Shown: one piece after another, positions 24,966-46,669 of the stretch | Numbering within the stretch: position 1 is the stretch's first letter | Layout of the letters: each line of letters opens with the position of its first letter | Assembly: GCA_964344145.1 (NCBI GenBank) | Contig: CAYFME010000001.1 | Location: forward strand, 16,896 to 80,895 | Direction of reading: 5' to 3' | From: an uncultured Gammaproteobacteria bacterium | GTDB lineage: Bacteria > Patescibacteriota > Patescibacteriia > UBA9934 | DNA length: 64,000 bases | The notes under the pieces: model-generated | Databases searched by the model: none | What the model was told of the DNA's origin: nothing | The model's input: only the letters and a program-made list of their open reading frames with translations | Program-made: the position numbers and the translations under genes

Positions 24966-27079
24966 GGGGCGCAACAGGACAACGGGCAGATGCCCCGCAT
25001 GAGATTCGGGAGAACCTTCGTACGTTTTCGAACATTCTTTCTTCGTGCGGAGTTCCGTTTTGGTTGGAGGCAGGGACGGCGCTTGCGGCGCATCGCGATG
25101 GGAAGATTTTTCCCTGGGAGCACGATGTGGATGTGGCGACATGGATTGATCACAAGGAGGGCGTGTTGAGTGCTGTTTCAAAGATGCGCGCACGGGGCTG
25201 GACGGTGAAGATCCAAAAGGGCTTTCCGTACCTCGATAACATTATCCAGGTCACCTTGCCGACGCTTCCAGACGGTCGTGAGCCATTCCCGAATCAATAC
25301 GACATCTATCTGTATCGCCGTGTGGAGGATAAGGCGATGATGCGGTGGATCCATCAGCCAACTGGGCGTTTCGCTTCGCTACAAAAGAAGATGATCTGGT
25401 ACGCAAAGGCATTGGCGCTGCCACGTGGGCGCAAGGCGAGGAGCGTCAAGTGGATTCCGCAATCCCTTCGTCGCGGTGTCTTTGCCCTTGTCTTGCACCT
25501 TCTTGTCCGCTTTGGACAATGCAAATACCACGTGCATCCATTGCGTTTTTTTCAAGAGCTGCGAACGATGGATTTTTACGGTGTTACGGTGCAGATTCCC
25601 AAGGATACCGATGCGTTTCTTGCGCACCGTTATGGACCGGGATGGAAAAGCCCTGATCCGCAATTTAACCAAAGCGGGAAGTGGAAGAAATCAAACGCGC
25701 GCCCCGAGTTACCGTTGCGCCTACTAGGGATGCCACGTATTGAGTATGGATTACAAGAGCGAAGGAATGAGCGTGTGGAGCTTGCACAACAGTTGATGCA
25801 GGCGGGCGTGCGTGCCGGACATCCCGCAGCGTTTATGCGCGATCTTGTCTCTCGCGACGGGAGCACACTCACGATCAATGGGCAGCAGTATCCTATTGAA
25901 AATGGTGTGAAGATGCTTGCGTTTGGCAAGGCGGCCGGCTCAATGGCGGAGGCATTTGTTGAGATGGTTGGAGCGGAGCGTATCAGTGCGGGGTTAGTGT
26001 CCGCTCCGCGTCTTGATACCTCATCGCTGCGCCAATATGCGCAGATTGAATGTATTGAAGGAACCCATCCGTTTGTGAGTGAGCAGAGTCTCTTGGCAGG
26101 ACAGCACGCGCTCGCTTTTGCAGATGCGTGCACGGAATCGGACGTGGTCGTCTGCCTTGTGTCCGGTGGCGGTTCCGCATTGCTCGCCCATCCGGCGGAG
26201 GGGATCACGCTTCAACAGAAAATTGACTTTGTACGCACGTGTATGCAGCGTGGTATTGCGGAGCGAGAATTGAATGTCGTGCGAAAGGGACTCTCAGCGA
26301 TCAAGGGAGGAAAGTTGGCGAGAAAAATGGCTCCTGCGACCATCGTAAACATCATTCTTTCTGACGAGCGGTCGCATCAGATAGAGGCAAATGCATCTGG
26401 CCCAACGGTGCCAAACAATACGACGCTGACTGCCCAAGCCGTGCTGCAAGAAGCGGGGATGTGGGAAGAAACGCCGCGGCATCTGCGTGACGTGCTGGTG
26501 CGCAATCCATCACTCACGGATGATGATCTTGCAGACATCCATCTGGCGACGAGGTTAGTGCCCGGGCGAGATCATGCCCTTGCTGGTATGCGAAAAGCGG
26601 CAGCGCGTTTATGTGATTCCGTTACGGTGCACGAGGATTTTTTTCACGAAAAGACGCACGGAAGTGTTGAGGAAGTCGCGCAACGGTTGGGTACGTTCTT
26701 TCGTAAACAATTTGCGCACGCCGGGGCTGGCCGACACGCAGTACTTGCCCATGGAGAAGTTATGGTTCCGGCAAAAAAAGAAAGTCGTGGTGGCCGATGT
26801 CAGCACCTCGCAGCGCTTATGCTTAATGAATTGCGCTCTATTCCTGCGTTCACGTTTGCGGCGCTGTCCTCAGACGGGTGTGACTTTTTGCACGGAGTGC
26901 ACGGAGCGGTGATCACCGATGCAACCATCGCACGCGTTGACCGTGATCGTATTGACTGCGCAGATGCTGTTGACCAGACAGCAACCCATGCGTTGCATGA
27001 GCGGCTTGGCACGTTAGCAACTGGAGACTACACTGGGACGAATGTAAACGACTACTATATTTTCATCTTCGATACGTAA
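24962..27079 (+). CDS. fusion: LicD-family (phosphocholine/phospho-polyol transferase fold, N) + glycerate 2-kinase MOFRL family (C)
   Basis: N-terminus FWLEAGTALAAHRDGKIFPWEHDVDVA is the LicD/fukutin WLxxGTLLGxxRxxxxIPWDDDxD motif. The C-terminal half carries KMLAFGKAAGSMAEAF (GKAA..MA) and VVCLVSGGGSALLAHPAEGITLQQKIDFVRTCMQRGIAERELNVVRKGLSAIKGGKLA (SGGGSAL...RK.LS.IKGG.LA). Also AALSSDGCDFLHGVHGAVIT, the MOFRL DGxDG motif. Start ATG at 24962 forms an ATGA overlap. Confidence 0.7.
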   Translation: MRGATGQRADAPHEIRENLRTFSNILSSCGVPFWLEAGTALAAHRDGKIFPWEHDVDVATWIDHKEGVLSAVSKMRARGWTVKIQKGFPYLDNIIQVTLPTLPDGREPFPNQYDIYLYRRVEDKAMMRWIHQPTGRFASLQKKMIWYAKALALPRGRKARSVKWIPQSLRRGVFALVLHLLVRFGQCKYHVHPLRFFQELRTMDFYGVTVQIPKDTDAFLAHRYGPGWKSPDPQFNQSGKWKKSNARPELPLRLLGMPRIEYGLQERRNERVELAQQLMQAGVRAGHPAAFMRDLVSRDGSTLTINGQQYPIENGVKMLAFGKAAGSMAEAFVEMVGAERISAGLVSAPRLDTSSLRQYAQIECIEGTHPFVSEQSLLAGQHALAFADACTESDVVVCLVSGGGSALLAHPAEGITLQQKIDFVRTCMQRGIAERELNVVRKGLSAIKGGKLARKMAPATIVNIILSDERSHQIEANASGPTVPNNTTLTAQAVLQEAGMWEETPRHLRDVLVRNPSLTDDDLADIHLATRLVPGRDHALAGMRKAAARLCDSVTVHEDFFHEKTHGSVEEVAQRLGTFFRKQFAHAGAGRHAVLAHGEVMVPAKKESRGGRCQHLAALMLNELRSIPAFTFAALSSDGCDFLHGVHGAVITDATIARVDRDRIDCADAVDQTATHALHERLGTLATGDYTGTNVNDYYIFIFDT

Positions 27080-27080
27080 T

Positions 27081-28067
27081 ATGGACTTACAGCACATCGC
27101 CCTAAACATCTACTCCTTCGGTTATGCTGCTGGATTTCTTAAGGACGATCGATATCCAGATCAAAAGCAGGCAGTAACGATCGACGCGCTTCCAGACCTC
27201 GCCGCATCTCTCGGGCTTGGGGGGATTGAATTTCCGTTTGATTATTTTTTTCGCGATGACGTGTCCGCGGGCGTGGCGTTTATTAAGCGCGTACAGGCGC
27301 GTGGACTGACGGTTGCGATTGATTTTGAGAAATGTGATGCATCGCTGTTGCGCAACGTGCTGCCGCAACTGCGTACACTGGATATCTCCTGGTGCCGGAT
27401 CAAGCTTCCACAGACGCTCTATGGTGGGGCGCAATATAAAGAACACGATTTCGGCATCTGGCGAGGGAGGTTTATCCACCTCTTGCAGGAGTTGCTTCCC
27501 CTCTTACGCGAACGAGACATGCGGTTGCTCGTTGAGAATCATCAAGATCTTTTTATTCAAGATTTGATTGATGTGATCCGTGCGACTGATCCAAGGCACA
27601 TTGGTATCAATTGGGACATAGGCAATAGCTTAGCGATTGGTGCAACACCGCAGCAGTTTTATGACGCGCTTGGACCATACATCGGGAATGTGCATTTGAA
27701 GGATTATCAGATTATGCCGCAGGAGAAGGGGATTGGCCTTGTGCGCTGTGCGCTCGGTGATGGGGTGGTAGATTTTGGATCAATCCTCGGACGCATCAAA
27801 AAAGATCATGGCGCGATGCCGATGTCCATCGAACTTGGGGCGCAAGTGACGCGGATGGTGGACATGCATGAAGATGCCTATTGGAACCAGATGATTCCGG
27901 TTGATCGCGCCCGCCGTGTCGTCTATGAACAATTTGTTGCCGCGCATATGGCAACCGAGCAAAAAACAACACTCTGGCAGCAGCGAAAGGCTGCCGAAGC
28001 CATCGTTGATCGCGAACACGAAGAGGTTAAGCAATCGGTTGACTTTCTCTCTTCGCTTAATGTATAA
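27081..28067 (+). CDS. xylose-isomerase-like TIM-barrel protein (sugar-phosphate isomerase/epimerase; hydroxypyruvate-isomerase-like)
   Basis: LLVENHQDLFIQDLIDVIRATDPRHIGINWDIGNSLAIG...NVHLKD matches the conserved E-H-D-H-E metal-site architecture of the AP_endonuc_2/xylose isomerase-like family. Confidence 0.65.
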   Translation: MDLQHIALNIYSFGYAAGFLKDDRYPDQKQAVTIDALPDLAASLGLGGIEFPFDYFFRDDVSAGVAFIKRVQARGLTVAIDFEKCDASLLRNVLPQLRTLDISWCRIKLPQTLYGGAQYKEHDFGIWRGRFIHLLQELLPLLRERDMRLLVENHQDLFIQDLIDVIRATDPRHIGINWDIGNSLAIGATPQQFYDALGPYIGNVHLKDYQIMPQEKGIGLVRCALGDGVVDFGSILGRIKKDHGAMPMSIELGAQVTRMVDMHEDAYWNQMIPVDRARRVVYEQFVAAHMATEQKTTLWQQRKAAEAIVDREHEEVKQSVDFLSSLNV

Positions 28068-30563: not shown

Positions 30564-31295
30564 ATGAACGCCATTATCTACGCTGCCGGCGCGGGCAATC
30601 GTCTGGGTGCTGCGATACATAAAGGGCTCGTGACGGTTGCGGGCGTACCTATGATTGACTATGCACTGCTGCGCGCTGCGCGAGGAAATCCTCAACAGAT
30701 TATTGTGGTCACCGGTCACTTTGCAGACGCGTTGCGTGAGCACATCGGAGCGGACTATCGCGGGATCCCGGTGCGCTACGTGCATAACGATCATTATCAG
30801 CTGCGCGGTAACATGAGCAGTCTGTGGGCGGCGCGTGATTACTGTACTGACGACGTCTTCTTCACAACGAGTGACCTCGTTTGTTCCTTGCAAGACATCG
30901 ATGCGTTTTTTGCTGCTCCACCCGTGAATAAAATCCTCATTGACACGAATCCGCAGTATCATACAGATCCCGATCCGGTAAAAGTGACGGTTGAGCAAGA
31001 GCGCATTGTGTCGGTGCGCAAGCAGATCGATGGGAGTGTCCATGGAGCCGCCATTGGCATGTATCACTTTAGCAAGAAGGCGATGCAACAGATGCTTGAC
31101 GCCATCGAGGCGCGGATCGCCGCAGGAGGCATTGATACGTCCCTTTATTGGGCTATTGATGACATTATGGGCGATGTGCATACCGTGCCCGTGTATTGTA
31201 AAGGGTTACCGTGGTTTGATGTGGATACGCCGGAAGAACTCCGCGCAGCGGAGCAAGCGGTAAGTAATGCCCAAGCTGATTATCTTGATGTATGA
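30564..31295 (+). CDS. sugar/alcohol-phosphate nucleotidyltransferase (NTP_transferase fold, LicC/IspD/CofC-like)
   Basis: MNAIIYAAGAGNRLG...GLVTVAGVPMIDY is the G-x-G-x-R-L nucleotidyltransferase signature. 243 aa. Confidence 0.7.
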   Translation: MNAIIYAAGAGNRLGAAIHKGLVTVAGVPMIDYALLRAARGNPQQIIVVTGHFADALREHIGADYRGIPVRYVHNDHYQLRGNMSSLWAARDYCTDDVFFTTSDLVCSLQDIDAFFAAPPVNKILIDTNPQYHTDPDPVKVTVEQERIVSVRKQIDGSVHGAAIGMYHFSKKAMQQMLDAIEARIAAGGIDTSLYWAIDDIMGDVHTVPVYCKGLPWFDVDTPEELRAAEQAVSNAQADYLDV

Positions 31296-32233
31296 AAATA
31301 CTTGTTGTTGGGGGTTCCGGGTTTATCGGAAGCCATGTCGCAGATCAACTTTCTGACGCAGGACACGACGTTGCGATTTTCGCACCGGATCGTTCACCTT
31401 ATGTACGAGACGACCAACGGATGATTGTTGGTGATATTACCAATGCCGACGATGTCGATCGCGCGGTCGCAGGACATGATATTGTTTATAATTTTGCAAG
31501 TGTGGCCGCCATCAAAGAGGCAAGCGAAAATCCAATCGCGGTCACGCGCGTGAATGTCCTTGGGACCGTGCATCTGCTGGAGGCCTGCAGAACGCACAAC
31601 GTGAGGAGATTTATTCTGGCAAGTTCGGTCTATGTGTATAGTCACACGGGGTCGATTTATAAAGCGAGTAAGCAGGCGGCCGAACGGTTTGTGGAGGCGT
31701 ATCTGGAGCGGTTTGATGCGCCGGCGCACACGATTGCGCGCGTGGGCACCGTGTATGGTCCCCGTGCCCAAGAGTGGAACGGCTTTCGTCAGCTCATCAC
31801 CGAGGCGGTGACAAAACAATCGGTCGTGTACAACGGATCGGGCGATGAGGTGCGTGCCTTTGTGCACGTGCACGATGTTGCCGCAAGTTTTGTCGATCTG
31901 CTCGCCCCTGAATATGAAAATGCGCACGTGATTATTGCCGGACAAGAGCAGGTCCGCGCGCGCGATTTTGTTGATATGCTTGCGGAGATGTTCGGCGGCG
32001 CCCTTGATGTAACCTTTGCGCATGAGGGAAGCGCGCGCCCAGATCATTACACCATGACGCCGTTTAGTTACCGTCCGAAAATGGCAAAGAAGATGACGCG
32101 CAGCACCTACATTGATCTTGGGCAGGGGATCCTTGAATACGTACATGAGCTGCAGTTAGAAAAGAACGGCGTTGATCACACCGGGATTCCAACGTTGCAG
32201 ATCGAGCATAACGGCGTTGATCACACCGTATGA
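31292..32233 (+). CDS. NAD-dependent nucleotide-sugar epimerase/dehydratase
   Basis: MKILVVGGSGFIGSHV Rossmann motif, YKASK (YxxxK). The C-terminal tail is created by an 18-bp tandem-type repeat. Confidence 0.75.
   Translation: MKILVVGGSGFIGSHVADQLSDAGHDVAIFAPDRSPYVRDDQRMIVGDITNADDVDRAVAGHDIVYNFASVAAIKEASENPIAVTRVNVLGTVHLLEACRTHNVRRFILASSVYVYSHTGSIYKASKQAAERFVEAYLERFDAPAHTIARVGTVYGPRAQEWNGFRQLITEAVTKQSVVYNGSGDEVRAFVHVHDVAASFVDLLAPEYENAHVIIAGQEQVRARDFVDMLAEMFGGALDVTFAHEGSARPDHYTMTPFSYRPKMAKKMTRSTYIDLGQGILEYVHELQLEKNGVDHTGIPTLQIEHNGVDHTV
32165..32227 (+). repeat. perfect 18-bp direct repeat AACGGCGTTGATCACACC x2, 45 bp apart, at the 3' end of the epimerase gene
   Basis: Copies at 32165-32182 and 32210-32227. 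Encodes the duplicated NGVDHT in the tail ...NGVDHTGIPTLQIEHNGVDHTV*. Confidence 0.8.
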
Positions 32234-33003
32234 ATATCATCGCCATTATTCCAGCGCGAATGGCCTCGACACGCCTGCCGGGAAAGCCCATGAAGCCTAT
32301 TTGTGGGATGCCCATGGTCGGGCATGTGTATGCGCGCGCGAAGATGAGTGAAAAGTTGACAGGAGTGTATATTGCCACCTGCGACCAGGAGATTATGGAT
32401 TACGCTGGCAGCATTGGCGCTCCCGCTTATATGACCAGTGATACGCATGAGCGCTGTACCGACCGCGTTGCCGAGGCGATGGCCTATGTGGAGCGTGATA
32501 CGGGAGAAGAGGCAGATATTGTCTTGGTCTTGCAGGGGGATGAGCCGATGACAACGCCCGAGATGATTGATGCAGCCTTGGCACCTATGATGGACGATCC
32601 ATCCATTGATGTTGTGAATTTGATGGCACCGCTTGCCAGTGCCAAAGAGCATGATGATAAGAATGAGCCGAAGGTGGTGGTAGATAAGCAAGGAAATGCG
32701 ATGTATATGTCGCGCGAGGCGATTCCGTCGCGCTGGAAGCAAGGAGAGGATGTGCCGATGATGAAGCAGGTGTGCGTGATGCCGTTTCGCCGGCAAGCGT
32801 TGCTTGACTTTAATGCTATGGAGCAAACGCCTTGCGAGATTGCCGAGTCCATCGACATGTTGCGCCTCCTTGAAAACGGCAAGCCTGTGCGGATGGTCCT
32901 ATCTCCAACCGCTGCAACGTATAGCGTGGACACGCCGGAGGACTTGGCGCATGTTGAGCAAGCGATGCGGGATGATCCGCTGGTTGTCCAGTACGCAGCA
33001 TGA
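32230..33003 (+). CDS. KdsB-like CMP-ulosonic acid synthetase (CTP_transf_3 family)
   Basis: IIAIIPARMASTRLPGKPMKPICGMPMV...YIATCDQEI...MTSDTHERCTDRVAEA parallels KdsB (IIPARYASTRLPGKPL...HQSGTDR). ATGA coupling to the upstream gene. Confidence 0.7.
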   Translation: MNIIAIIPARMASTRLPGKPMKPICGMPMVGHVYARAKMSEKLTGVYIATCDQEIMDYAGSIGAPAYMTSDTHERCTDRVAEAMAYVERDTGEEADIVLVLQGDEPMTTPEMIDAALAPMMDDPSIDVVNLMAPLASAKEHDDKNEPKVVVDKQGNAMYMSREAIPSRWKQGEDVPMMKQVCVMPFRRQALLDFNAMEQTPCEIAESIDMLRLLENGKPVRMVLSPTAATYSVDTPEDLAHVEQAMRDDPLVVQYAA

Positions 33004-33025
33004 GATCGGTGAAAAACGTCTTCCA

Positions 33026-33054
33026 TTGACAAATCTAGGAGCTTACTCTATATT
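33026..33054 (+). promoter_or_regulatory. near-consensus sigma70 promoter
   Basis: TTGACA (33026-33031), 17-nt spacer, TATATT (33049-33054). It lies immediately after the long glycan operon ends and upstream of the high-GC orphan gene, with a ~150-nt leader. Confidence 0.5.
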
Positions 33055-33206
33055 GACTCCTTGTTCTTTGTGATTTTGGTCTTCTTTTTCGCTACCAAAC
33101 AACCGTAGTAGAGAGAAAGAAGGTCGGAATCCTCCGGTCCCCGTGGTACGCGTTACGCGAACAGTTTGGTTGGTACGACGTACGCCGCATCTTAAGGAGG
33201 TGCCTC

Positions 33207-33743
33207 TTGGCACGCACAGATACGCACAACAGCCCCGTCTCGTGGCTTCGTCGGCTCTCAGGAACTCTCGAGAAGATCATCGAGGCGGTCGAAGAGCAGG
33301 GTGGTACGTTCGACCATCTCAAGTCGTTTGTCGCCGATGCTCGCAACTGCGTCAACCTGGGCAAGCTGGTGATGGGAAGGCTCGAGATCGTCGAGTCGGA
33401 ACTTCCCACCCAGATCACCCTCGGCGATCGCACCTACGAGATCCTCGGCTTCCTCAAGCCTGGCGAGACCTCGGTCAAGGGTGACGTCATGGTCCAGCGC
33501 GCCAAGGAGATGAACGCCCACCTCGGCAAGGAAGACGGCCAGTGGTTCCTGGACCACCAGGACGACATCCCTGAGAGTCTGCGCGGCAAGGTCGCCTTCG
33601 TCTTCACCGACTGGCGTGACCCCGGCGCCTCGCGCAGCGTCTGCTACGTCTACTGGCACGGCGCTTCCCGTCGCTGGATCAGGCACTGGCGCGGCCTCCG
33701 CGACCAGTGGGGTGTCAGCGACCGTCTTGTGCGTCGCAAGTAG
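33207..33743 (+). CDS. hypothetical protein, TTG start, high-GC foreign-looking orphan
   Basis: AAGGAGG RBS 6 nt upstream of TTG. The 178-aa ORF is markedly more GC-rich than its flanks. No recognisable domain. Confidence 0.5.
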   Translation: MARTDTHNSPVSWLRRLSGTLEKIIEAVEEQGGTFDHLKSFVADARNCVNLGKLVMGRLEIVESELPTQITLGDRTYEILGFLKPGETSVKGDVMVQRAKEMNAHLGKEDGQWFLDHQDDIPESLRGKVAFVFTDWRDPGASRSVCYVYWHGASRRWIRHWRGLRDQWGVSDRLVRRK

Positions 33744-33802
33744 GCTCTTGGGTACTGGGGCTCTTGGCACCTGTCTTGGCCCTCGCTCCCTTGGTTCCTC
33801 CG

Positions 33803-33830
33803 CGACCCCCGTCCACATGGACGGGGGTCG
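33803..33830 (+). other. perfect 12-bp GC-rich inverted repeat (hairpin) CGACCCCCGTCC-acat-GGACGGGGGTCG
   Basis: Read directly. Located 60 nt after the high-GC orphan gene, with no following T-tract. Possible terminator or recombination/structural site. Confidence 0.4.
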
Positions 33831-33947
33831 AGTGCTTTGCAAGCGCCATTTCTCACAGTCAACGAACATATGGTGAAGGCCCTCGGCTGGAATGTTAAGA
33901 GCAAGATAGGAGTTGTCACTGGACTGTATGTGATAAGATAGCCCTGT

Positions 33948-34535
33948 ATGAAGCGCCGGCTGAAATCAAAAGGCGAACAAAGCGTCTACGTTTTCATCGA
34001 CGCATCTAACCTGTGGGAGGCGCAGAAGGCCAAGGGGAAGATGTTTGATTTTGAAAAGCTGGTCGCTTATCTGAAAGACGAGTTTTCAACGCCAGATGTT
34101 GAGGTGTTTTATTACACCGCCTATCCCGCAGACGGAACACGCTCATACAGCCTGGATCCAAAGCACAAGTTTTTCGCATTTCTAAAAAAAGGCCTTAGAT
34201 TCCATGTACGTAAGAAGCCGCTGAAGCGCATCACGATCGACAGCGACGAAGGTCAATCAGTACAAGAGAAAGGTAATATGGATGTGGAGATGACGATTGA
34301 TGCCCTCCACCACCGAGATAAGTATGACGTTGCCGTCTTTTTCACGGGTGACTCGGATTTCCTCGCTTTGGTGAACTATCTAAAAAACAACGGAAAGAAG
34401 GTATACATTTTCTCATCTAAGAACAATGTCTCACATGAGCTGAAAACAGGTGGTCATGGATACCGAGACATTCTCAAAATCGACAAGGACATCTGGGGGC
34501 GTGATCTGCGCCACAGAGGACAAAAGAAACGATAA
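33948..34535 (+). CDS. NYN-domain (LabA-like) protein, putative RNase, stand-alone
   Basis: VYVFIDASNLW...DVAVFFTGDSDFLALVNYLK are the NYN/PIN-like acidic motifs. AT-rich gene between GC-rich flanks. Confidence 0.65.
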   Translation: MKRRLKSKGEQSVYVFIDASNLWEAQKAKGKMFDFEKLVAYLKDEFSTPDVEVFYYTAYPADGTRSYSLDPKHKFFAFLKKGLRFHVRKKPLKRITIDSDEGQSVQEKGNMDVEMTIDALHHRDKYDVAVFFTGDSDFLALVNYLKNNGKKVYIFSSKNNVSHELKTGGHGYRDILKIDKDIWGRDLRHRGQKKR

Positions 34536-34705
34536 AGGAAAGCACCCTCCGCAAGGAGGGTGCTTCTTGGATGTAATACCCTAACAGTCTATGGCTAGAC
34601 TGAAAGACACTAAAATCATAGCCTGTGGAGTCGATTCTGTCAATAGTGGTCCCGTCGCGTCAAGTTGACGCGAAAAGGCCAAATGAGTACCCTGAGGCTA
34701 GAAAA

Positions 34706-36607
34706 ATGAAGGTTTGTCAAGGTATTAGCCACATGAAAGCGAGCATTATCATCCGTACACTCAACGAGGAGAAGCACATTGGAAATCTCCTTGCGGCGAT
34801 CAACAAGCAGACACATCGGGACTATGAAATTATCCTGGTTGATTCTGGTTCGAGCGATCGCACGATGGAGATCGCGCGTCCACACTGCGACGTTGTCACA
34901 ACGATTGAGAGCAGAGATTTTACCTTTGGATACTCACTGAACGAAGGGTGCAAGCGTGCAAGCGGTGATGTGCTTATCATCACGTCCGCACATGCGTATC
35001 CGGCAGATGAACATTGGCTCGCGGAGCTTGTTGCACCGTTTTGTGACCCGGACGTCGCCATGGCGTATGGGCGGCAGGTTGGTGCACGAGAGACAAAACA
35101 TTCTGAACGAAATGATTTTGAGCGTATTTTTGGCTCCATCGATACGCCGCGACATTCGCTTCCCTATTTTGCCAACAATGCAAATGCGGCCGTACGTGCA
35201 GAGCTCTGGAAAGAGGAACCATTTGATGCCGCACTGACGGGACTTGAAGATATCGCGTGGGCACGCCATTGGTTTGAGCGTGGAAAGAACATCACATACG
35301 TTGCCACTGCCTCCGTGCATCATATCCATGAGGAAGTCTGGCCACAGGTGTACAACCGGTACCGTCGCGAGGCGATCGCGGCGCGCCGCATGGGACTTCC
35401 GGAACCACCGATGGCAAGCATCAACCCACTCATAGCAACAAAGCGGGCACTGCATGATTTTGCGACGTCGCCTCTTCGTACGTGGGCAACGAAGTATGGA
35501 ATGGACATTCTGCGCTTTCGCTTTGAGCAGTGGCGCGGGTCGCACCACGGGTGGCATAAAGATTCCACCGAAGATTTGCCGGATATTCGCACAGAGCTTT
35601 TTTATTCCTCTATGACCAATTATGGCGTGCGCATTGAATCCCCTGGGCAGGCGCGACTCACGCAGCTTCCCGTTCCAGAGGTTAAGCCGGGAGATGTCCT
35701 GATTCGTGTGGCTTACACGGGTATTTGCGCGACAGATCTGGAGGTATACGAGGGTACGCTCGGGTACTACAAAACAGGGCGCGCAAGCTATCCGATTGTT
35801 CCGGGACATGAGTTTTCCGGGACCATCGCGCGTGTCGGCGCGCGGGTAACGGATCTTGCCGTGGGGGATCCTGTTGTTGGCGAGTGTATCCAGTCGTGCC
35901 GTCGCTGCGCTCATTGTAAGCGCGAGGCGTTTACCGCCTGCCCGGATCGCATTGAGGTGGGCGTGATGAACAAACACGGTAGCTATGCGCAGTACGTGGT
36001 GGTGCCTGCCGTGTACGTGCACAAACTTCCCGCGGGCGTTCCTCTCTCTCGCGCGGCGCTTGTGGAACCGCTTGCCGTCGTGTTGCGTGGTGTGCGGCGA
36101 CTTGAACCGTTTTTGAAGGAACCGCTGCGCGTAGGAGTTGTTGGCGCAGGGCCGATTGGAAATCTTGCCGCCCAGGTGCTTTCCCATCGCGGGCATGACG
36201 TAACCGTATTCGAGCGCAATAGGGCGCGCCGCGCACACCTTCCGGATTCAATCGCCACAAAAGCAGACCTGTACAACGTGCATGAGTATGATATTCTCGT
36301 CGAGGCCACGGGCAATCGCGATGCTCTGCAAACGGTGCTCCGCGACAGTCGCGTAGGCGCAACGGCACTACTCCTTGGTTTCCCGTACGGATCCTTGCCG
36401 TATAACTTTGAAGAAGTGGTTGGCGGTGATCGTGTGATCATCGGTTCGGTCGGAGGATCGCGCGAGGATTTCATTGCGGCAACGCGATGGCTTGTTAAGC
36501 TCGATTGTACGGCATTTCATGCAGGGGTTTTTCCGCTTGTGGAATTTGAAACTGCATGGAATGCGCACCGCGAAGGGAAATTCTTGAAGACAATGCTCGC
36601 CTTATGA
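34706..36607 (+). CDS. fusion: family 2 glycosyltransferase (N) + Zn-dependent medium-chain alcohol dehydrogenase (C)
   Basis: N-terminus SIIIRTLNEEKHIGNLLAAINKQTHRDYEIILVDSGSSD (GT-A). C-terminal half VLIRVAYTGICATDLEVYEG...PIVPGHEFSGTI...GECIQSCRRCAHCK carries the Zn-binding signature plus structural-Zn Cys cluster of MDR alcohol/threonine dehydrogenases. Start at the ATG with an upstream GAGG. Confidence 0.7.
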   Translation: MKVCQGISHMKASIIIRTLNEEKHIGNLLAAINKQTHRDYEIILVDSGSSDRTMEIARPHCDVVTTIESRDFTFGYSLNEGCKRASGDVLIITSAHAYPADEHWLAELVAPFCDPDVAMAYGRQVGARETKHSERNDFERIFGSIDTPRHSLPYFANNANAAVRAELWKEEPFDAALTGLEDIAWARHWFERGKNITYVATASVHHIHEEVWPQVYNRYRREAIAARRMGLPEPPMASINPLIATKRALHDFATSPLRTWATKYGMDILRFRFEQWRGSHHGWHKDSTEDLPDIRTELFYSSMTNYGVRIESPGQARLTQLPVPEVKPGDVLIRVAYTGICATDLEVYEGTLGYYKTGRASYPIVPGHEFSGTIARVGARVTDLAVGDPVVGECIQSCRRCAHCKREAFTACPDRIEVGVMNKHGSYAQYVVVPAVYVHKLPAGVPLSRAALVEPLAVVLRGVRRLEPFLKEPLRVGVVGAGPIGNLAAQVLSHRGHDVTVFERNRARRAHLPDSIATKADLYNVHEYDILVEATGNRDALQTVLRDSRVGATALLLGFPYGSLPYNFEEVVGGDRVIIGSVGGSREDFIAATRWLVKLDCTAFHAGVFPLVEFETAWNAHREGKFLKTMLAL

Positions 36608-37254
36608 ATACAGATGGGAAGAAGATCATTGACATTACGATGCCCCTTGTCGCAGGGAGCACGCCAACGTGGCCGGGAAGTCCGGGGCTTTCGGTCGAGT
36701 ATTTCCAGGCGATTCCACGTGGTGATCGGTCAAATAACACGCAACTCACCATGGATGTGCATGTGGGGACCCACCTTGAGGGTTCGCTTCATTTTGTCGA
36801 TGGCGGGGAGTCGGTGGACACCATTGCTCTGGCTATGTGTGTTGGTGAGGCGTACGTGGTAGATTGTACCGGGCGCTCCCAAGTGGGTGCCGCGGATCTT
36901 GCTGCGTGCAATATCCCAGATGACTGCACACGTCTGCTGCTAAAAACGGAGAACAGTGCGCGTTGGAATCAAGGGAAACGGGATTTTGACGAGGCGCTTG
37001 TGGGACTCACGGCCGATGGAGCCGCTTGGGTGGTAGAGCATGGAATCCAGCTGATCGGGAACGACTATCTCTCTATCTCCGCACGCGGACAGGCGTCTGA
37101 GGTACACGCGACGCTCTTTGATGGTGGTGTGGCGGTTCTAGAAGGAGTAGTGCTTGCCGACGTTGACCCCGGTACCTATACGCTTGTGTGTCTTCCTCTT
37201 TCGCTTCCAAAAAGAGAGTCGGCTCCTGCGCGCGCTGTTTTAATCAAATCATAA
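36604..37254 (+). CDS. cyclase-family protein (kynurenine formamidase-like metal hydrolase)
   Basis: ATGA overlap with the upstream stop. HVGTHLEGSLHFVDGG matches the cyclase-family HxGTHxDxPxH motif. Confidence 0.65.
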   Translation: MNTDGKKIIDITMPLVAGSTPTWPGSPGLSVEYFQAIPRGDRSNNTQLTMDVHVGTHLEGSLHFVDGGESVDTIALAMCVGEAYVVDCTGRSQVGAADLAACNIPDDCTRLLLKTENSARWNQGKRDFDEALVGLTADGAAWVVEHGIQLIGNDYLSISARGQASEVHATLFDGGVAVLEGVVLADVDPGTYTLVCLPLSLPKRESAPARAVLIKS

Positions 37255-37273
37255 CGATAACTGAAAACGTCCT

Positions 37274-38221
37274 ATGGCAAAATGGAACATCCTTATCTCG
37301 GCACCGTATTTTCAACCGGTGGTCGATGAGTATAAAGACTTTTTTGATCAACACGATATGCAGATTACGGTTCCGGAGGTGCGTGAGCGCCTCAATGAGG
37401 AGGAATTACTTGCGTGTGTTGAAGGAATGGATGGTGTTGTTTGCGGGGATGATCATTTCACCGAGCGCGTGCTCGATCAATGCAAAGATCTTAAGGTGAT
37501 TTCTAAATGGGGGACAGGTATTGATTCCATTAACAAGCCGGCAGCGGAATCTCGGGGCATCGCCGTGAAAAATACTCCCAACGCCTTCACCGACTGCGTT
37601 GCGGACACCACGGTGGGGTACATCTTGAATTTTGCTCGGCAGCTATCCGCGATGGATCGAAAAATGAAGCAGGGGGGATGGGAGAAGATGATGTCGCGTA
37701 CACTCAAGGAGTCAACGGTTGGTGTCCTTGGTCTCGGGAATATCGGACGCGCGGTTGTCAGACGTCTGGTGCCTTTTGGCCCTCGCATCGTTGGGTTTGA
37801 TAGTTTCGCGCCTCCTTCTGATGAATTCGTTCAAGAGACGGGCATCGAAGTGATGTCGATGGACGATGTCATTCGTGAGGCGGACTACTTGACCCTCCAT
37901 TGTTTTCTGGATGAAAACAGCAGGCATCTGATTAATGCCGACCGGCTGGCGCAAATGAAAAACGACGCCGTGATTGTCAATACCGCACGAGGTCCGCTTA
38001 TTCACGAGCAGGCGCTTATCGAGGCCCTGCAAGCGGGAACCATTGGCGGTGCGGCCCTAGATGTGTTTGAGTTCGAGCCGCTTCCAGAGGAGAGTCCGTT
38101 GCGACGCATGGATAACGTGCTCATCGCCCCGCATAATTCAAATGCAAGTCCGGAGGCATGGAGACGCATTCACGAGTCCACCCTCGCCAATCTCCTGGAA
38201 GAGCTACATCGCTATGCATAA
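37274..38221 (+). CDS. D-isomer-specific 2-hydroxyacid dehydrogenase (glycerate/hydroxypyruvate or phosphoglycerate dehydrogenase-like)
   Basis: VGVLGLGNIGRAV NAD-binding motif. NTARGPLIHEQALIEAL...GAALDVFEFEP catalytic-domain signature. Confidence 0.8.
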   Translation: MAKWNILISAPYFQPVVDEYKDFFDQHDMQITVPEVRERLNEEELLACVEGMDGVVCGDDHFTERVLDQCKDLKVISKWGTGIDSINKPAAESRGIAVKNTPNAFTDCVADTTVGYILNFARQLSAMDRKMKQGGWEKMMSRTLKESTVGVLGLGNIGRAVVRRLVPFGPRIVGFDSFAPPSDEFVQETGIEVMSMDDVIREADYLTLHCFLDENSRHLINADRLAQMKNDAVIVNTARGPLIHEQALIEALQAGTIGGAALDVFEFEPLPEESPLRRMDNVLIAPHNSNASPEAWRRIHESTLANLLEELHRYA

Positions 38222-40340
38222 GGGACTATTCCCGAATACGAACTTTAACATCTTCCGTCGTGCAAACGGCTGCGACTCGTTCAAAAAGCCTCAAAATAGC
38301 TCTGCTATTCTTGCGTTTTTTGAACTTCGTCTCGCTCGCTTGCACTCGGAATCTGTCGAAAGCCGTACTCGGGAACAGTCCCCTAAACGCGTCTTATTCG
38401 TGATTGATCACGATGAGACGGTTCAGGATACGGTTTTTAAGAGCGCGGTGAGTAAGTTAGTGAGTGAGGCCCGACGTAGTGGGGTTGAGTCCCTGTCGGT
38501 TCTCTCGTTTTGTGATGGTCAGCAGGATGGGCTGCGGGCCTATTGTCAATCGCTGTGGCAGGAACCCATCGAGTGGCTTGATGCCGGCGAGCAGGTACAG
38601 GCCATCAGCGTGCAGGCGCAGCAGGCAATTTTGGACGGTGTGCATGCGCTGGGGCAGGCCATGATCTCGTGTATGGATGTTCGAGGTAGGGCGGGTGATC
38701 GAGAGCGTTGTGAGCGTGATTGGCAGTATACAGAGTTAGCAGAAAAGAACAGTCCCGGGAGCCCGCTCTGGTGGCGTATGGTACGCATATTTGCCGTCCA
38801 AACGCTTTGTCGTGATCGTTCGTTTGATCAGCTCTTGTATCTTGGTCGGCGGGATGTTGGTTCTGTCATGCACCAGATCGCGCAGCAGGAGGGGATGGGA
38901 TATAGCGCCCACACATACGGCAGGAGACGTATGGGCGTGATGGTGTCATTGATGCGTCGCGTTGTTGGCTTGCTGCAGCTCACGGTAGCCGCTGCCATGG
39001 CACGCGCGCTAACGTATCGGACACCTCCGTCCGTCGGTGGTTTGCAGTTCTACACCTGGTTTCCGCGCATCTGGCATGAATCTCATCCACATGAGCAGGA
39101 TCGATATCTTGGGAATTTGGTTGAACGATTACGAGCTGACGGCCACGTAGTTTGGTATATTGGTCGGCTCTTTGATCGACCGGATGGGGTACCGGTTCGC
39201 ACGATGTGGAAACGGTTTTTGCGGGCACGACGTGACCAGGAACGTCTTGGACTGATCGTCCTTGAGCGCTCCATTTCGATGTACAGCGTGATACAAGCAT
39301 GGTTGAATCTTAGATCGCTGAAATATGTTTGGCGTGCAATGTCCAATCCCGCGGTTGTGTCTTGCATGCAAGTAAACGGCCTCTCTTATCGTTCCCTCCT
39401 GTTGCCGCGTTTGGTGCGGTCTTTGTTGGTGCATGTCCCTCTGTTGAATGTTTTAGAAGCGGCAACGTTTCGACTAACGTGTGAACGTCGTCCACGTGTG
39501 GTGACGACGTATTGTTTCGAATATATGTACGGTCGCGCGATCGTGGCGGGTGTGCACGGGGCGGCATCAACAACGAAAGTATTTGGACTGCAGCATGGGC
39601 CGATCAGTCCCATGAAATGGTTGTATTGGCAATTGGAAAGGGGCGTGCCAGGCGCTATGTGTCCCGATCACTATCTTTTGGATGGAGCGTATGCAAAACA
39701 GTTATTGGAGGAAGGGGGGGTTGATCCGGCGCGCATCTCCGTCAGCGGCGCCGTGCGTTTGGATGCGGTTTGGTCGCAGGCTCGCAAGAGTCATCCGCCC
39801 GCACTAATGAAAGGTCGGATGCGTATTTTGGTTGCTCCCGGATTGCATGATACGGAGCTTGTTCTTGCCATGGTACGCGAGGCATTATTGAGCGTTGGTT
39901 CTTGGGAGATCGTCATTAAATCGCATCCGAAAGTGTCGATTGATTTGGTCAATGAAATAGTTAGGTCATGGGGGACGGACTCAACCATGGCTTCTGTCCA
40001 GGTGGTGCGAGATGGGAGTCTGTATGAGTGGATTGAGTCGGCGGATGTGTTTGTGTCATCGTATTCATCAGCTGGCGTCGAGGCGATTGCCTTTGGGGTA
40101 CCTGTTGTTTACATCCGTTCAGGATCCACACCGGATATGAGTGTCTTTTTCGATTGTGACCAAGTGCATATGGTGAGCACGCCGCCGGATCTGTACCACT
40201 CTGTCGCGAAGCTTATGCAAGATGCCGACGCGCATCATACGTATGTGCAGACCCTTTCTGCCTTGCTTGAACATCGATATGCGCATGTGCGGCATGGGGA
40301 TGCGATGTCGCAATTACAAGCGGTGTATGCCAGAGCGTAA
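38214..40340 (+). CDS. large hypothetical protein with TagF-like C-terminal motifs (polymerase candidate)
   Basis: IKSHPK and VFVSSYSSAGVEAIAFGVPVVYIRSG resemble the K-HP and DYSS...P.IFY motifs of CDP-glycerol glycerophosphotransferase-type enzymes. The start at 38214 is uncertain. Confidence 0.35.
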   Translation: MHKGLFPNTNFNIFRRANGCDSFKKPQNSSAILAFFELRLARLHSESVESRTREQSPKRVLFVIDHDETVQDTVFKSAVSKLVSEARRSGVESLSVLSFCDGQQDGLRAYCQSLWQEPIEWLDAGEQVQAISVQAQQAILDGVHALGQAMISCMDVRGRAGDRERCERDWQYTELAEKNSPGSPLWWRMVRIFAVQTLCRDRSFDQLLYLGRRDVGSVMHQIAQQEGMGYSAHTYGRRRMGVMVSLMRRVVGLLQLTVAAAMARALTYRTPPSVGGLQFYTWFPRIWHESHPHEQDRYLGNLVERLRADGHVVWYIGRLFDRPDGVPVRTMWKRFLRARRDQERLGLIVLERSISMYSVIQAWLNLRSLKYVWRAMSNPAVVSCMQVNGLSYRSLLLPRLVRSLLVHVPLLNVLEAATFRLTCERRPRVVTTYCFEYMYGRAIVAGVHGAASTTKVFGLQHGPISPMKWLYWQLERGVPGAMCPDHYLLDGAYAKQLLEEGGVDPARISVSGAVRLDAVWSQARKSHPPALMKGRMRILVAPGLHDTELVLAMVREALLSVGSWEIVIKSHPKVSIDLVNEIVRSWGTDSTMASVQVVRDGSLYEWIESADVFVSSYSSAGVEAIAFGVPVVYIRSGSTPDMSVFFDCDQVHMVSTPPDLYHSVAKLMQDADAHHTYVQTLSALLEHRYAHVRHGDAMSQLQAVYARA

Positions 40341-46230: not shown

Positions 46231-46452
46231 ATGAGCAAAATAGATTTCAAAGTAGCCGTATGGAAAGAGGGAGACTACTACGTCTCGCGTTGTTTGGATG
46301 TTGAGGTGTCAAGCTTTGGGAAAACAAAAAAAGAAGCCCTTGCGATGCTTCAAGAAGCACTGGAACTCTATTTTGAAGACGCACCATTTCCAAACAAAAA
46401 GGATTTGATAAAAAGACCAGTTCTCGCTTCGGTCACGTTGCAACATGCCTAA
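46231..46452 (+). CDS. hicB: HicB-family antitoxin
   Basis: 73 aa. VAVWKEGDYYVSRCLDVEVSSFGKTKKEALAMLQEALELYFE matches the HicB/UPF0150 pattern. Overlaps the downstream HicA-like gene. Confidence 0.6.
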   Translation: MSKIDFKVAVWKEGDYYVSRCLDVEVSSFGKTKKEALAMLQEALELYFEDAPFPNKKDLIKRPVLASVTLQHA

Positions 46453-46669
46453 ACAATACTCCGTGAGACTTGTCATCAAAGTCCTTCTCAGTAAGGGCTT
46501 CTTTTTTGTTTCCCAAAAAGGATCTCATGCCAAATATCGGAAAATAGGGGACCCAACGAGGGTCGTCATTGTTCCAAAGCATGAAAAAGATTTGCGCTAC
46601 GGAACTTTTAAGTCAATTTTGGAGCAGGCGAATTTAAAAGAAAGCGATTTTCGGGGCAAGAAAAAATAA
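46445..46669 (+). CDS. hicA: HicA-family toxin (YcfA-like mRNA interferase)
   Basis: 74 aa. KVLLSKGFFFVSQKGSHAKYRK...VVIVPKHEKDLRYGTFKSILEQANL matches HicA (G-f.....GSH......t.P.H...l..GtL..Il). Confidence 0.65.
   Translation: MPKQYSVRLVIKVLLSKGFFFVSQKGSHAKYRKIGDPTRVVIVPKHEKDLRYGTFKSILEQANLKESDFRGKKK

Follow-up and report, generated by a model that had tools for sequence, protein, structure and literature searches.

The window (the whole 64,000-nucleotide stretch of DNA analyzed here) carries a conserved but uncharacterized four-gene cassette, which is composed of a KdsB-like cytidylyltransferase (CT), a fusion of a GT2-fold domain to a zinc alcohol dehydrogenase (GT2-ADH), a cyclase-family hydrolase (CY), and a D-2-hydroxyacid dehydrogenase (HD). 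Judging from their conserved residues, the cassette enzymes all look active, and their most likely product, at about even odds, is a CMP-activated 2-keto sugar acid (2-ulosonic acid) for the Wzy-type surface polysaccharide of the surrounding locus. The relevant features are as follows.

31292..32233, + strand: NAD-dependent epimerase/dehydratase-family SDR, an optional cassette accessory
32230..33003, + strand: KdsB-like CMP-transferase (CT), the fourth conserved partner
33004..34705: islet between CT and GT2-ADH, about 1.7 kb
about 33200-33900: high-GC stretch within the islet, GC 0.60-0.66
33948-34535: NYN-domain gene within the islet (NYN Pfam match), GC 0.45-0.48
34539-34566: hairpin with a 12-bp stem, in the islet
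34706..36607, + strand: GT2-ADH fusion gene, 633 aa; alternative start 34733
34736..35608, + strand: GT2-fold domain and conserved helical linker
34985-34993, + strand: S-A-H in place of DxD, GT2 domain
35246-35251, + strand: LED motif (E173-D174), GT2 domain
35321-35329, + strand: HxH motif, GT2 domain
35618..36604, + strand: zinc MDR dehydrogenase domain, polyol/threonine-dehydrogenase clade
35726 (C333), 35807-35812 (H360-E361), and 36065 (E446): catalytic zinc ligands
35897-35941, + strand: structural Cys4 (C390, C393, C396, C404)
36143-36160, + strand: GAGPIG motif, ADH domain
36212: acidic NAD-type residue E495, ADH domain
36604..37254, + strand: cyclase-family (PF04199) metal-dependent hydrolase (CY), a putative aldonolactonase
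37274..38221, + strand: NAD-dependent D-2-hydroxyacid dehydrogenase (HD), short PGDH-like type
38214..40340, + strand: 708-aa Pfam-poor protein with a GT-B-like C-terminal part, a candidate transferase for the activated acid

The GT2-ADH fusion is genuine. A sequence-only reading had proposed that a GT-A domain continues in frame into an MDR zinc dehydrogenase, and we indeed find a single uninterrupted open reading frame (34625/34706..36607, + strand) in which Pfam recognizes Glycos_transf_2 (aa 13-133, E 1.9e-22), ADH_N (aa 327-442, E 2.2e-28), and Glu_dehyd_C plus ADH_zinc_N (aa 450-622; all numbered from 34706), with the Glu_dehyd_C match exceeding the family cut-off. Gene callers and a GAGG Shine-Dalgarno sequence favor the ATG at 34706 (633 aa), whereas the start of homologues corresponds to the ATG at 34733. 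No frameshift is present at the junction near 35.6 kb, across which three other, independent assemblies are 100% identical to the window and encode the identical 633-aa protein. An architecture search recovered the same fusion in at least 591 species-level genomes, and both domains are present in every one of the top 120 database homologues, which are 601-865 aa long and 47-59% identical. The inter-domain linker aligns across these 120 sequences (conserved residues F263, R264, G270, and G274) and is helical and confidently placed in an AlphaFold2 model of the fusion (mean pLDDT 94.2, pTM 0.76). No characterized member of the fusion family was found. A sequencing frameshift or misassembly joining two genes, for which no supporting point emerged, was rejected as having virtually no chance of being correct, given the homologues, the conserved linker, the three assemblies, and the breadth of genomes that share the architecture.

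Both domains of the fusion look catalytically competent. The dehydrogenase domain carries the catalytic and structural zinc signatures that had been ascribed to it: the four catalytic ligands C333, H360, E361, and E446 (residue 1 being codon 34730) are invariant in 118/118 aligned sequences, and the structural Cys4, which is deleted in 68 of the 118 relatives, is kept in the window's protein. At the cofactor-selecting position 495, 103 of 118 sequences have an acidic residue (D in 101, E in 2) and 15 have N. PDB sequence matches of the domain include 1e3j (1.4e-30), 4ej6, and threonine dehydrogenases, and Foldseek TM(target) values are 0.83-0.88. The nearest relatives of the domain are threonine, sorbitol, and inosose dehydrogenases; known MDR aldose 1-dehydrogenases are more distant, 2h6e being matched with an E of only 4e-16.

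The GT2 domain, which has no membrane segment, retains the nucleotide-binding Asp and catalytic-base Asp of inverting GT2 enzymes, further motifs (VDSGSSD, NNANxA, and RYRRE), and an acceptor-side helix with many invariant Arg residues. Its fold most closely resembles that of bona fide inverting transferases, some of them processive. The DxD position is invariably S-(A/G)-H throughout this GT2 subfamily, a feature that the sequence-only reading overlooked.

Downstream of the fusion, the CY gene starts on the previously described ATGA overlap (36604-36607) and the HD gene follows, and the family assignments of both hold up (Pfam cyclase domain, E 7.5e-22; Pfam 2-hydroxyacid dehydrogenase domains, E 1.4e-59). 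CY matches kynurenine formamidase structures (E about 1e-26) and scores 125 bits on the arylformamidase equivalog, under its cut-off of 223; its metal ligands H53, H57, D/E59, H63, H168, and E180 are conserved in 25/25 cassette members. The closest family of HD is the phosphoglycerate dehydrogenases (best PDB match 1wwk, E 1e-54), though its 222.6 bits on the PGDH model TIGR01327 fall under the 454 cut-off. Residues D176, R239, E268, and H287 of HD, comprising the NAD Asp and an Arg-Glu-His triad, are invariant in 55/55 sequences. The block extends further downstream, since the HD gene shares an 8-nt overlap with the gene at 38214..40340; this overlap is absent from the earlier reading. The 708-aa product of that gene matches, at a score below the cut-off (E 1.6e-25), the NCBIfam model TIGR04326 'surface carbohydrate biosynthesis protein', and profile iteration from it reaches 540-700-aa proteins and then GT4.

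Upstream, CT matches Pfam CTP_transf_3 (E 1.2e-43), and its nearest solved structure is the E. coli capsule CMP-Kdo synthetase (K-CKS) 1GQ9 (E 2.5e-39), with which it shares the LPGKP, QGDEP, and VDTP motifs. CT also retains the Lys and the pair of Asp residues on which KdsB catalysis depends (PMC3149649). Each of the window's other two CTP_transf_3 genes has a NeuB partner and CT has none. NeuB lies within 10 kb of the fusion in only 8/80 related loci, and no ulosonate synthase was found attached to the cassette. The SDR upstream of CT (Pfam Epimerase, E 7e-41) accompanies only 12-17 of the 80 loci.

The islet that separates CT from GT2-ADH is an insertion that splits the cassette, because CT abuts or is fused to GT2-ADH in relatives. 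Its composition is foreign, neither of its ORFs has homologues in the 80 related loci, and searches for a tRNA, an Rfam family, or flanking repeats there came up empty. One assembly spans the islet and provides the CT-GT2-ADH linkage in this genome, with which synteny agrees; every other assembly breaks within it (ends at 33446 or 33543, starts at 33417 or 33766). It had been suggested that a three-gene block begins after the islets and was acquired as a module. That suggestion is not supported, given the fourth partner, CT, which lies upstream of the islet here and occurs with the fusion in most of the loci described next, in some of them abutting, overlapping, or fused to it.

Among 80 related loci, which span many phyla, 64 pair the fusion with CT, 64 with HD, and 29 with CY; the genes are always tightly packed and co-directional, and their order is shuffled. 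The genes for CY and HD are thus true functional partners of the fusion. The cassette is frequent among Patescibacteria and is also found in archaea, and cultured carriers include Paramagnetospirillum marisnigri SP-1 and Magnetospirillum sp. SS-4. Of the twelve loci that share the window's gene order, nine have CT immediately next to the fusion or overlapping it. In five loci whose flanks are complete, the fusion stands without CT or HD. Triple CT-GT2-ADH fusions also exist (P0097/P0101).

Loci elsewhere that encode an S-(A/G)-H GT2 keep CT and HD, but an SDR takes the place of the zinc dehydrogenase, and either an MBL hydrolase or an SMP-30 gluconolactonase that of the cyclase. One locus (L095) combines an MBL-hydrolase-GT2 fusion with CT, HD, and an SDR, and two (L098/L099) encode an SDR, an SMP-30/gluconolactonase (PF08450), a stand-alone GT2, CT, and HD. 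Around the same GT2 subfamily there are also a CT-GT2 fusion with a cyclase gene after it (L097) and a GT2-cyclase fusion with a CT gene after it (P0250). The hydrolase slot therefore spans three folds, including a classic sugar-lactonase family, and the dehydrogenase slot is MDR or SDR. Aldose-1-dehydrogenase/lactonase pairs of oxidative sugar pathways show the same MDR/SDR and multi-fold variation. A mutarotase-like DUF4432 gene lies beside the cassette in eight CY-less loci, usually directly upstream of CT.

A sister cassette, also uncharacterized, offers a second comparison. It has CT, HD, an SDR, methyltransferases, and a large Pfam-less protein (about 600 aa) in common with the GT2-ADH loci, whereas its front end is a class II (HpcH/HpaI) 2-keto-acid aldolase and a HAD phosphatase in place of GT2-ADH and the cyclase. 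The two front ends never occur together in the loci examined, HpcH and HAD being absent from all 80 GT2-ADH loci. The window's upstream SDR shares 42-43% identity with the SDR located after HD in two aldolase-type cassettes (L087, L089). CT orthologues of the sister cassette are 60-63% identical to the window's CT, and their position beside a 2-keto-acid aldolase points to a 2-keto acid as the probable CT substrate. The role of HD may differ from the C2 oxidation proposed below, since HD is present in these cassettes too, where the aldolase already supplies the 2-keto group.

The swap pattern around the S-(A/G)-H GT2 suggests a route from NDP-sugar through free aldose, aldonolactone, aldonate, and 2-keto-aldonate to CMP-2-ulosonate, which would proceed without a KdsA/NeuB-type synthase. 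The GT2 domain would bind an NDP-sugar and free the sugar by inverting hydrolysis, and the fusion would pass the freshly released anomer straight to the NAD-type zinc dehydrogenase, which, based on its fold and partner genes, may oxidize aldose C1 to the aldonolactone. Non-orthologous displacement by a gluconolactonase-family protein suggests that CY opens the lactone. Family chemistry suggests that HD would then oxidize the aldonate C2-OH to give the 2-keto acid, and this chemistry, together with the conserved catalytic residues, that CT couples the anomeric C2-OH to CMP. In the weakest step, the adjacent 708-aa GT-B-like protein may pass the acid to the glycan; proteins of this type adjoin the cassette in about 38/80 loci and are also present in sister cassettes.

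Parts of this route have parallels in known systems. PseG, LegG, and NeuC split NDP-sugars to yield a free reducing sugar within CMP-acid pathways, as proposed for the GT2 domain, but have GT-B or epimerase-type rather than GT-A folds, and we know of no GT-A-fold enzyme with hydrolase activity as its main function. Non-phosphorylative oxidative routes (for xylose, arabinose, fucose, and rhamnose, for example) similarly use an optional mutarotase, an interchangeable MDR or SDR aldose 1-dehydrogenase, and an aldonolactonase of varied fold, including SMP-30. We know of no documented lactonase in the cyclase family. These routes are catabolic and continue with a dehydratase, whereas C2 oxidation and CMP activation for biosynthesis are proposed here.

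The sequence-only reading had instead proposed that a true glycosyltransferase acts on a glycan or small acceptor and that the fused dehydrogenase oxidizes or reduces the transferred sugar or the acceptor in place, for instance to a keto-sugar or polyol. The resemblance of the GT2 fold to inverting, sometimes processive, transferases, the retained catalytic-base ED motif and Arg-rich helix, and the many other transferases in the locus are in keeping with this idea. It nevertheless leaves unexplained the near-obligate CT and HD partners, the gluconolactonase-family hydrolase, and the mutarotase-like neighbors, and sits poorly with a GT2 domain that lacks a membrane segment and, in all members, the DxD. 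The comparative data fit a metabolic route better, and we regard in-place modification as unlikely.

The missing DxD could equally indicate a CMP-linked donor, since a monophosphate donor needs no metal, and some CMP-sugar transferases have GT-A-like folds without DxD. The GT2 domain would then transfer the CMP-activated acid, HD alone would convert a pool aldonate (gluconate, for example) to the 2-keto acid, and ADH and the hydrolase would act after transfer. The S-A-H found in every member and the position of CT directly before GT2 in the CT-GT2 and CT-GT2-ADH fusions favor this arrangement, but that domain order merely equals gene order, a separate GT-B-like candidate transferase adjoins about half of the loci, and a post-transfer lactonase and second dehydrogenase would have no obvious substrate. 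We judge it somewhat less probable again than in-place modification.

Alternatively, CT might be an ordinary CMP-Kdo synthetase, with neighbors that either serve unrelated tailoring reactions or modify Kdo, for example by a terminal-alcohol oxidation of the kind that KdnB carries out in Kdo8N synthesis. CT is named KdsB in databases, passes the NCBIfam KdsB subfamily NF009905 (296.7 bits, cut-off 255), and has K-CKS as its best structural relative, yet falls short of both KdsB equivalog models (136.6 against a cut-off of 155.2 for kdsB TIGR00466). The CMP-Kdo (KdsA-KdsC-KdsB) and CMP-nonulosonate (NeuB-NeuA, Pse, Leg) pathways likewise lie within surface-glycan loci, the window itself holding two NeuB plus CTP_transf_3 pairs, and in their final step a CTP_transf_3 cytidylyltransferase activates a 2-keto sugar acid at its anomeric C2-OH. 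Unlike them, the cassette CT comes without a PEP-dependent synthase, and the proposed keto acid would not be 3-deoxy, because it would be made by two oxidations of a sugar. The window ORFs scanned include no Kdo-8-phosphate synthase-type domain, an aldolase is built into the sister cassettes, and the Patescibacteria and archaea that carry the cassette have, to our knowledge, neither LPS nor a Kdo pathway. A Kdo role thus seems improbable, and we give it little credence.

Finally, TarI/TarJ and Bcs1 (CDP-ribitol synthase) pair or even fuse a cytidylyltransferase with an MDR zinc dehydrogenase for a cell-surface polymer, a pattern that the CT-GT2-ADH triple fusion recalls, but a corresponding system in which the dehydrogenase reduces a keto-sugar phosphate and the cytidylyltransferase makes a CDP-polyol for a teichoic-acid-like polymer is very improbable, as CT is KdsB-type (CTP_transf_3) rather than IspD-type, the acidic ADH residue is typical of NAD, not NADPH, enzymes, and the additional HD, lactonase-type partners, and GT2 domain would be left unexplained.

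The gene joining a GT2 glycosyltransferase domain to a zinc-dependent alcohol dehydrogenase (ADH) domain, here called GA, lies in one uninterrupted plus-strand open reading frame that runs from 34625 to 36607. Its start codon, the ATG at 34706, has a GAGG 8 bases upstream and was chosen by gene callers on other assemblies, giving a protein of 633 amino acids; an alternative ATG at 34733 marks the position where homologues begin. Residue numbers of the fusion count from codon 34730. GA and its immediate surroundings are laid out as follows.

32230-33003: KdsB-like cytidylyltransferase gene (CT)
33004-34705: islet separating CT from GA
33948-34566: NYN-domain gene, then a GC-rich hairpin of 12-bp stem; the gene is of low GC (0.45-0.48) and lies inside the sugar cassette
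34706-36607, + strand: GA, with Pfam matches to Glycos_transf_2 at the N-terminus (E 1.9e-22), to ADH_N (E 2.2e-28) and, in the C-terminal half, to Glu_dehyd_C and ADH_zinc_N (the latter E 1.9e-9)
36604-37254: cyclase-family hydrolase gene (CY)
37274-38221: D-2-hydroxyacid dehydrogenase gene (HD)

The sequence-only reading had described an in-frame fusion whose stop overlaps the start of CY as ATGA (36604-36607), with the HD gene following CY, and this arrangement stands. A frameshift at the junction and missing zinc ligands were both looked for, and neither was found. Three other assemblies, derived from two sequencing runs, encode the same protein with 100% identity across the junction, and an architecture search recovered both domains in all of the best 120 database relatives (47-59% identity). 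These identical assemblies, the two-domain relatives in many species and the conserved interdomain linker rule out a frameshift or misassembly at 35.6 kb. AlphaFold2 modelled full-length GA with a mean pLDDT of 94 and a pTM of 0.76. In Foldseek searches against the PDB the full-length model matched dehydrogenases only, and the GT2 domain was modelled separately for its fold search.

The ADH domain comprises a GroES-like catalytic domain and a Rossmann domain with a conserved GAGPIG motif (Foldseek TM(target) 0.83-0.88). Its catalytic zinc ligands C333, H360, E361 and E446 align with those of 1e3j and are invariant in 118/118 sequences. The structural Cys4 lobe (C390, C393, C396, C404) is present in the window, so that both zinc signatures noted on first inspection are there; it is deleted in 68 of the 118 relatives, mostly of Patescibacteria type, and the GA family is thus able to do without it. 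Within the MDR family the domain falls in the polyol/threonine-dehydrogenase clade. It missed every NCBIfam equivalog cut-off, with the best-matching models, those of L-threonine 3-dehydrogenase, scoring well below theirs (NF003808, 144 bits versus 380; TIGR00692, 131 versus 458). The cofactor-selecting residue is Asp or Glu in 103/118 sequences. An acidic residue at this position of MDR enzymes is a sign of NAD use and is commoner in oxidative enzymes.

The GT2 domain has a GT-A Rossmann-like fold and carries the N-terminal nucleotide-binding acidic motif D-x-G-S-x-D as VDSGSSD, with D38, S39 and D43 invariant. The DxD motif is absent: an S-A-H motif aligns with the D-A-D of 6yv7, and S86 and H88 are invariant in all 118 GA sequences. 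From the sequence, H88 could form a His-based metal site with H198/H200. The catalytic-base motif L172-E173-D174 is kept, with E173 and D174 invariant. An exhaustive search with the GT2 domain only returned 323 cluster representatives at E <= 1e-30. The S-(A/G)-H motif also occurs in GT2 subfamily members that stand alone or have other fusions, and the subfamily as a whole is found either as stand-alone proteins or fused to four types of partner: a zinc dehydrogenase, CT (P0259), a cyclase (P0250) or a metallo-beta-lactamase-fold (MBL) hydrolase (P0300, P0333).

The remaining enzymes likewise retain catalytic residues and score below the models of characterized families. CY matches PF04199 (E 7.5e-22), resembles kynurenine formamidase (E about 1e-26) and has an HxGTHxDxxxH motif with a distal His and Glu; H53, H57, E59 (D in most members), H63, H168 and E180 are conserved in 25/25 sequences. 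It scores 125.1 bits against the arylformamidase equivalog TIGR03035 (cut-off 223), and no tryptophan or kynurenine genes were found among the window ORFs scanned. HD is a short phosphoglycerate-dehydrogenase-like enzyme (PF02826, E 1.4e-59; PF00389, E 9e-19) in which G153, the NAD-type Asp D176 and the Arg-Glu-His triad R239, E268 and H287 are invariant in 55/55 sequences; its score against the D-3-phosphoglycerate dehydrogenase (PGDH) equivalog TIGR01327 is 222.6 bits (cut-off 454). CT is nearest to the E. coli capsule CMP-Kdo synthetase, with LPGKP, QGDEP and VDTP identical to 1GQ9 when aligned, and keeps the CTP_transf_3 fold, the catalytic Lys and two Mg-binding Asp; catalytic roles have been described for K19 and two Asp of KdsB (PMC3149649). 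CT fails the KdsB equivalogs (TIGR00466, 136.6 versus 155.2; NF003948, 167.9 versus 281) and passes subfamily models only (NF009905, 296.7 with a cut-off of 255; NF003952, 258.9 with a cut-off of 193). By these scores, the cassette enzymes fall outside the KdsB, threonine dehydrogenase, arylformamidase and PGDH equivalog families.

The partners of CT are GT2-ADH, CY and HD in place of KdsA, KdsC and a Kdo transferase, and no Kdo-8-phosphate synthase-type domain was detected in about 50 window ORFs scanned. The window's other two CTP_transf_3 genes (7889 and 20849) are each paired with NeuB (at 7068 and in a fusion at 16397), whereas CT has no NeuB partner in the window. The cassette also differs from the TarIJ/Bcs1 CDP-ribitol synthase, in that CT is of KdsB type rather than IspD type and the ADH cofactor residue is acidic (103/118) rather than NADPH-type. 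The end of the cassette resembles a CMP-Kdo or nonulosonate pathway, while its start resembles an oxidative aldose pathway.

All window proteins were compared with 80 related loci that carry GT2-ADH. CT, HD and CY were counted by tblastn; counts for other neighbours are approximate, since ORF clustering in the related loci sometimes took antisense ORFs. Only three neighbours are conserved with GA: HD and CT, each present in 64/80 loci at a median identity of 51%, and CY, present in 29/80. The coupling of CY and HD with GT2-ADH is therefore borne out. Cassette order differs among lineages (most commonly CT-HD-GA in 26 loci, CT-GA-CY-HD in 12 and CY-CT-HD-GA in 10), and the genes are invariably tight and co-directional. 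CT and GA abut or overlap in 9 of the 12 loci that share the window's order, and in P0097 and P0101 they form a single 865-aa protein, whose gene precedes those for a cyclase and HD. Five loci with full flanks encode the fusion without CT or HD, often beside an ATP-grasp gene.

In the window, CT and GA are 1.7 kb apart, separated by a stretch of GC 0.60-0.66, the NYN gene and the strong hairpin. None of this content has a counterpart in any of the 80 related loci, and every other assembly breaks inside the islet: the upstream contig ends at 33543 and the downstream contig starts at 33417, their 127-bp overlap being the assembler k-mer size, and in Logan the contigs stop at 33446 and resume at 33766. 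Given also the adjacency of CT and GA in relatives, we conclude that the islet is an insertion into the cassette; it is probably variable in the population. The physical linkage of CT and GA here rests on the window's own assembly together with synteny. The sequence-only reading's three-gene module starting after the islet must accordingly be revised, as CT is a fourth conserved partner upstream and the islet interrupts the cassette rather than marking a module boundary. The islet yielded no tRNA, no Rfam family, no repeats at its flanks and no clear phage family, and the NYN gene resembles only phage families without an assigned function, and those weakly (phrog_7929, E 3e-8). The high-GC stretch (33200-33900; locus about 0.52) contains long overlapping ORFs at 33207-33743 on the plus strand and 33258-33869 on the minus strand, with no Pfam or PHROG match and no homologue in related loci. 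It also contains a perfect 13-bp palindrome (33803-33830), and all four other assemblies break in it.

Downstream, the HD gene overlaps by 8 nt a gene for a 708-aa protein. Beyond it lie two GT4 genes, then Wzy-like and GT2 genes and, further on, a gene for an initiating sugar transferase. Taken as a whole, the region is a locus for a Wzy-type polysaccharide. The 708-aa protein is GT-B-like, matches TIGR04326 below threshold and gave no significant match to the PDB by sequence; in roughly half of the loci a relative of it adjoins the cassette.

Loci with exchanged partners indicate which activities are fixed. One encodes an MBL-GT2 fusion, CT, HD and a short-chain dehydrogenase (SDR) (L095), another a CT-GT2 fusion followed by a cyclase gene (L097), and two encode an SDR, an SMP-30/gluconolactonase-family protein, a stand-alone GT2, CT and HD (L098, L099). 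GT2, CT and HD stay the same across these contexts. The dehydrogenase is of either MDR or SDR type, and the hydrolase position is taken by any of three unrelated folds, one of them (SMP-30/gluconolactonase) the classic aldonolactonase family. In eight loci that lack CY, a mutarotase-like DUF4432 gene adjoins the cassette. In oxidative sugar pathways, an aldose 1-dehydrogenase from either superfamily is combined with a lactonase, whose fold varies, and sometimes with a mutarotase.

A sister cassette shares the other half of the system. In its loci, CT orthologues (60-63% identity) are accompanied by HD, methyltransferases, an SDR of epimerase type and a Pfam-less 540-650-aa protein, and the places of GT2-ADH and the cyclase are taken by a HAD phosphatase and a 2-keto-acid aldolase of HpcH/HpaI type. 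HpcH and HAD are absent from the window and from 80/80 GT2-ADH loci. GT2 genes of the sister cassette have ordinary DxD motifs. With CT and HD shared and the front genes swapped, one back end is served by two alternative front ends; the presence of an aldolase in one of them suggests that CT activates a 2-keto acid. The sister cassette, which appears uncharacterized, may reach a CMP-ulosonic acid by way of a pyruvate or hydroxypyruvate aldolase. It was seen in L087, L088, L089, L090 and L092, often near LIC12162-family (PF27859) and NeuB genes.

The best-supported model, which we infer at every step and consider evenly poised between right and wrong, is a sugar-oxidation route to a CMP-2-ulosonate. 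The GT2 domain would free a sugar from an NDP-sugar, the fused dehydrogenase would oxidize the free sugar at C1 to a lactone, and the cyclase-family hydrolase would open the lactone. HD would then oxidize the C2 hydroxyl of the aldonate to give a 2-keto acid, CT would make the CMP-2-ulosonate, and the 708-aa GT-B-like protein would install the CMP-activated acid. The model has exactly one step for each of the five conserved activities, and we propose that GT2 and ADH are fused because inverting hydrolysis would pass one anomer straight to the dehydrogenase. Its weak points are that the ADH domain is not especially close to known aldose dehydrogenases, that HD, which is also in the aldolase cassette, must have a different role there, and that the five loci noted above carry the fusion without CT or HD. 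We know of no precedent for a hydrolase of GT-A fold or for a cyclase-family lactonase.

Two other readings concern the GT2 domain. The sequence-only reading, in which a sugar is transferred and it or its acceptor is then modified in situ, strikes us as improbable. A transferase that uses a CMP-linked donor would be compatible with the loss of DxD, and to this we give still less credence.

Kdo and sialic, pseudaminic and legionaminic acids are CMP-activated keto-sugar acids and key surface determinants. All routes to such compounds known to us use a PEP-dependent synthase. Building on the sugar-oxidation model, we tentatively suggest, as a proposal more doubtful than secure, a new aldolase-independent route to a CMP-activated non-deoxy 2-ulosonic acid (2-keto-aldonic acid), in which a GT2 domain lacking DxD works as a hydrolase of nucleotide sugars and is physically joined to an aldose dehydrogenase. 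The product would represent a new class of acidic surface sugar in many bacterial phyla, Patescibacteria and some archaea, and the sister cassette with its HpcH aldolase would arrive convergently, by another route, at the same class of donor. If true, this would constitute a new biosynthetic logic, probably a new monosaccharide class and the first nucleotide-sugar hydrolase of GT-A fold. It would also provide a function for hundreds of genes labelled 'glycosyltransferase', 'alcohol dehydrogenase', 'KdsB' or 'cyclase' and a starting point for work on the surface glycans of uncultured Patescibacteria. As context only, CMP-linked alpha-keto acids that are still unassigned have been reported from Magnetospirillum gryphiswaldense in a 2026 preprint (10.64898/2026.04.20.719630). 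The chemical space is thus open, and the cassette occurs in the genus Magnetospirillum.

The GT2-ADH architecture is not rare, being encoded in at least 591 species in a scan of one genome per species. Among the matches listed, carriers include Patescibacteria, Desulfobacterales, Rhodospirillales, Acidobacteriota, Gemmatimonadota, Chloroflexota, Nitrospirota, Planctomycetota, Elusimicrobiota, Omnitrophota and a few archaea, and two are cultured (Paramagnetospirillum marisnigri SP-1 and Magnetospirillum sp. SS-4). Database names of GA homologues are generic or wrong ('alcohol dehydrogenase catalytic domain-containing protein', 'glycosyltransferase', 'bacteriochlorophyllide dehydrogenase'), and a full-text literature search turned up no characterized homologue and no account of the cassette or its fusion gene. 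Within this large uncharacterized family the window's copy is unremarkable, its sole local peculiarity being the islet that splits the cassette.

Neighbouring genes hint at further variation in the product. Seven loci from Acidobacteriota and Gemmatimonadota (L045, L048, L050, L052, L073, L074, L085) combine GT2-ADH with an ATP-grasp gene and, in many cases, a mutarotase-like DUF4432 gene. Several of them lack CT and HD, and in such loci the sugar acid may be amide-linked rather than CMP-activated. Across L007-L086, 10 loci have a B12-binding radical SAM gene adjacent to the cassette and about 27 have neighbouring methyltransferases of FkbM, class I or other types, which suggests C- or O-methylation of the cassette product.

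Several other features were observed in the glycan locus.

7068-8575: the NeuB (7068) and CTP_transf_3 (7889) pair noted above
14464-15030, + strand: SocA/Panacea antitoxin-domain gene, of toxin-antitoxin type
16397-18949, + strand: 850-aa protein with a flavin amine-oxidase/UDP-galactopyranose-mutase-like domain, NeuB and SAF
24836-27079, + strand: 747-aa ORF with a LicD phosphotransferase segment and a complete glycerate-kinase-type DUF4147+MOFRL module
27081-28067: xylose-isomerase-like TIM-barrel gene, then SDR genes, downstream of the LicD/DUF4147 ORF
about 46231-46607: DUF7387 and HicA-toxin pair, called on an ENA contig (L001, 12815-13191)
46774-48533, + strand: split transketolase (N-terminal TPP-binding part; pyrimidine-binding and C-terminal part)

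The LicD-DUF4147+MOFRL fusion, almost absent from the 80 related loci, could make a phosphoglycerate-type substituent and transfer it onto the glycan. Downstream of the 850-aa NeuB fusion are an SDR, a divergent 2-Hacid_dh-like gene, a second CTP_transf_3 gene (20849-21532, plus strand), an aldo-keto reductase and an FkbM methyltransferase; together these genes form an unusual nonulosonate-type module. The split transketolase sits inside the polysaccharide locus, between an unannotated 435-aa ORF and a methyltransferase that is followed by the initiating sugar transferase.
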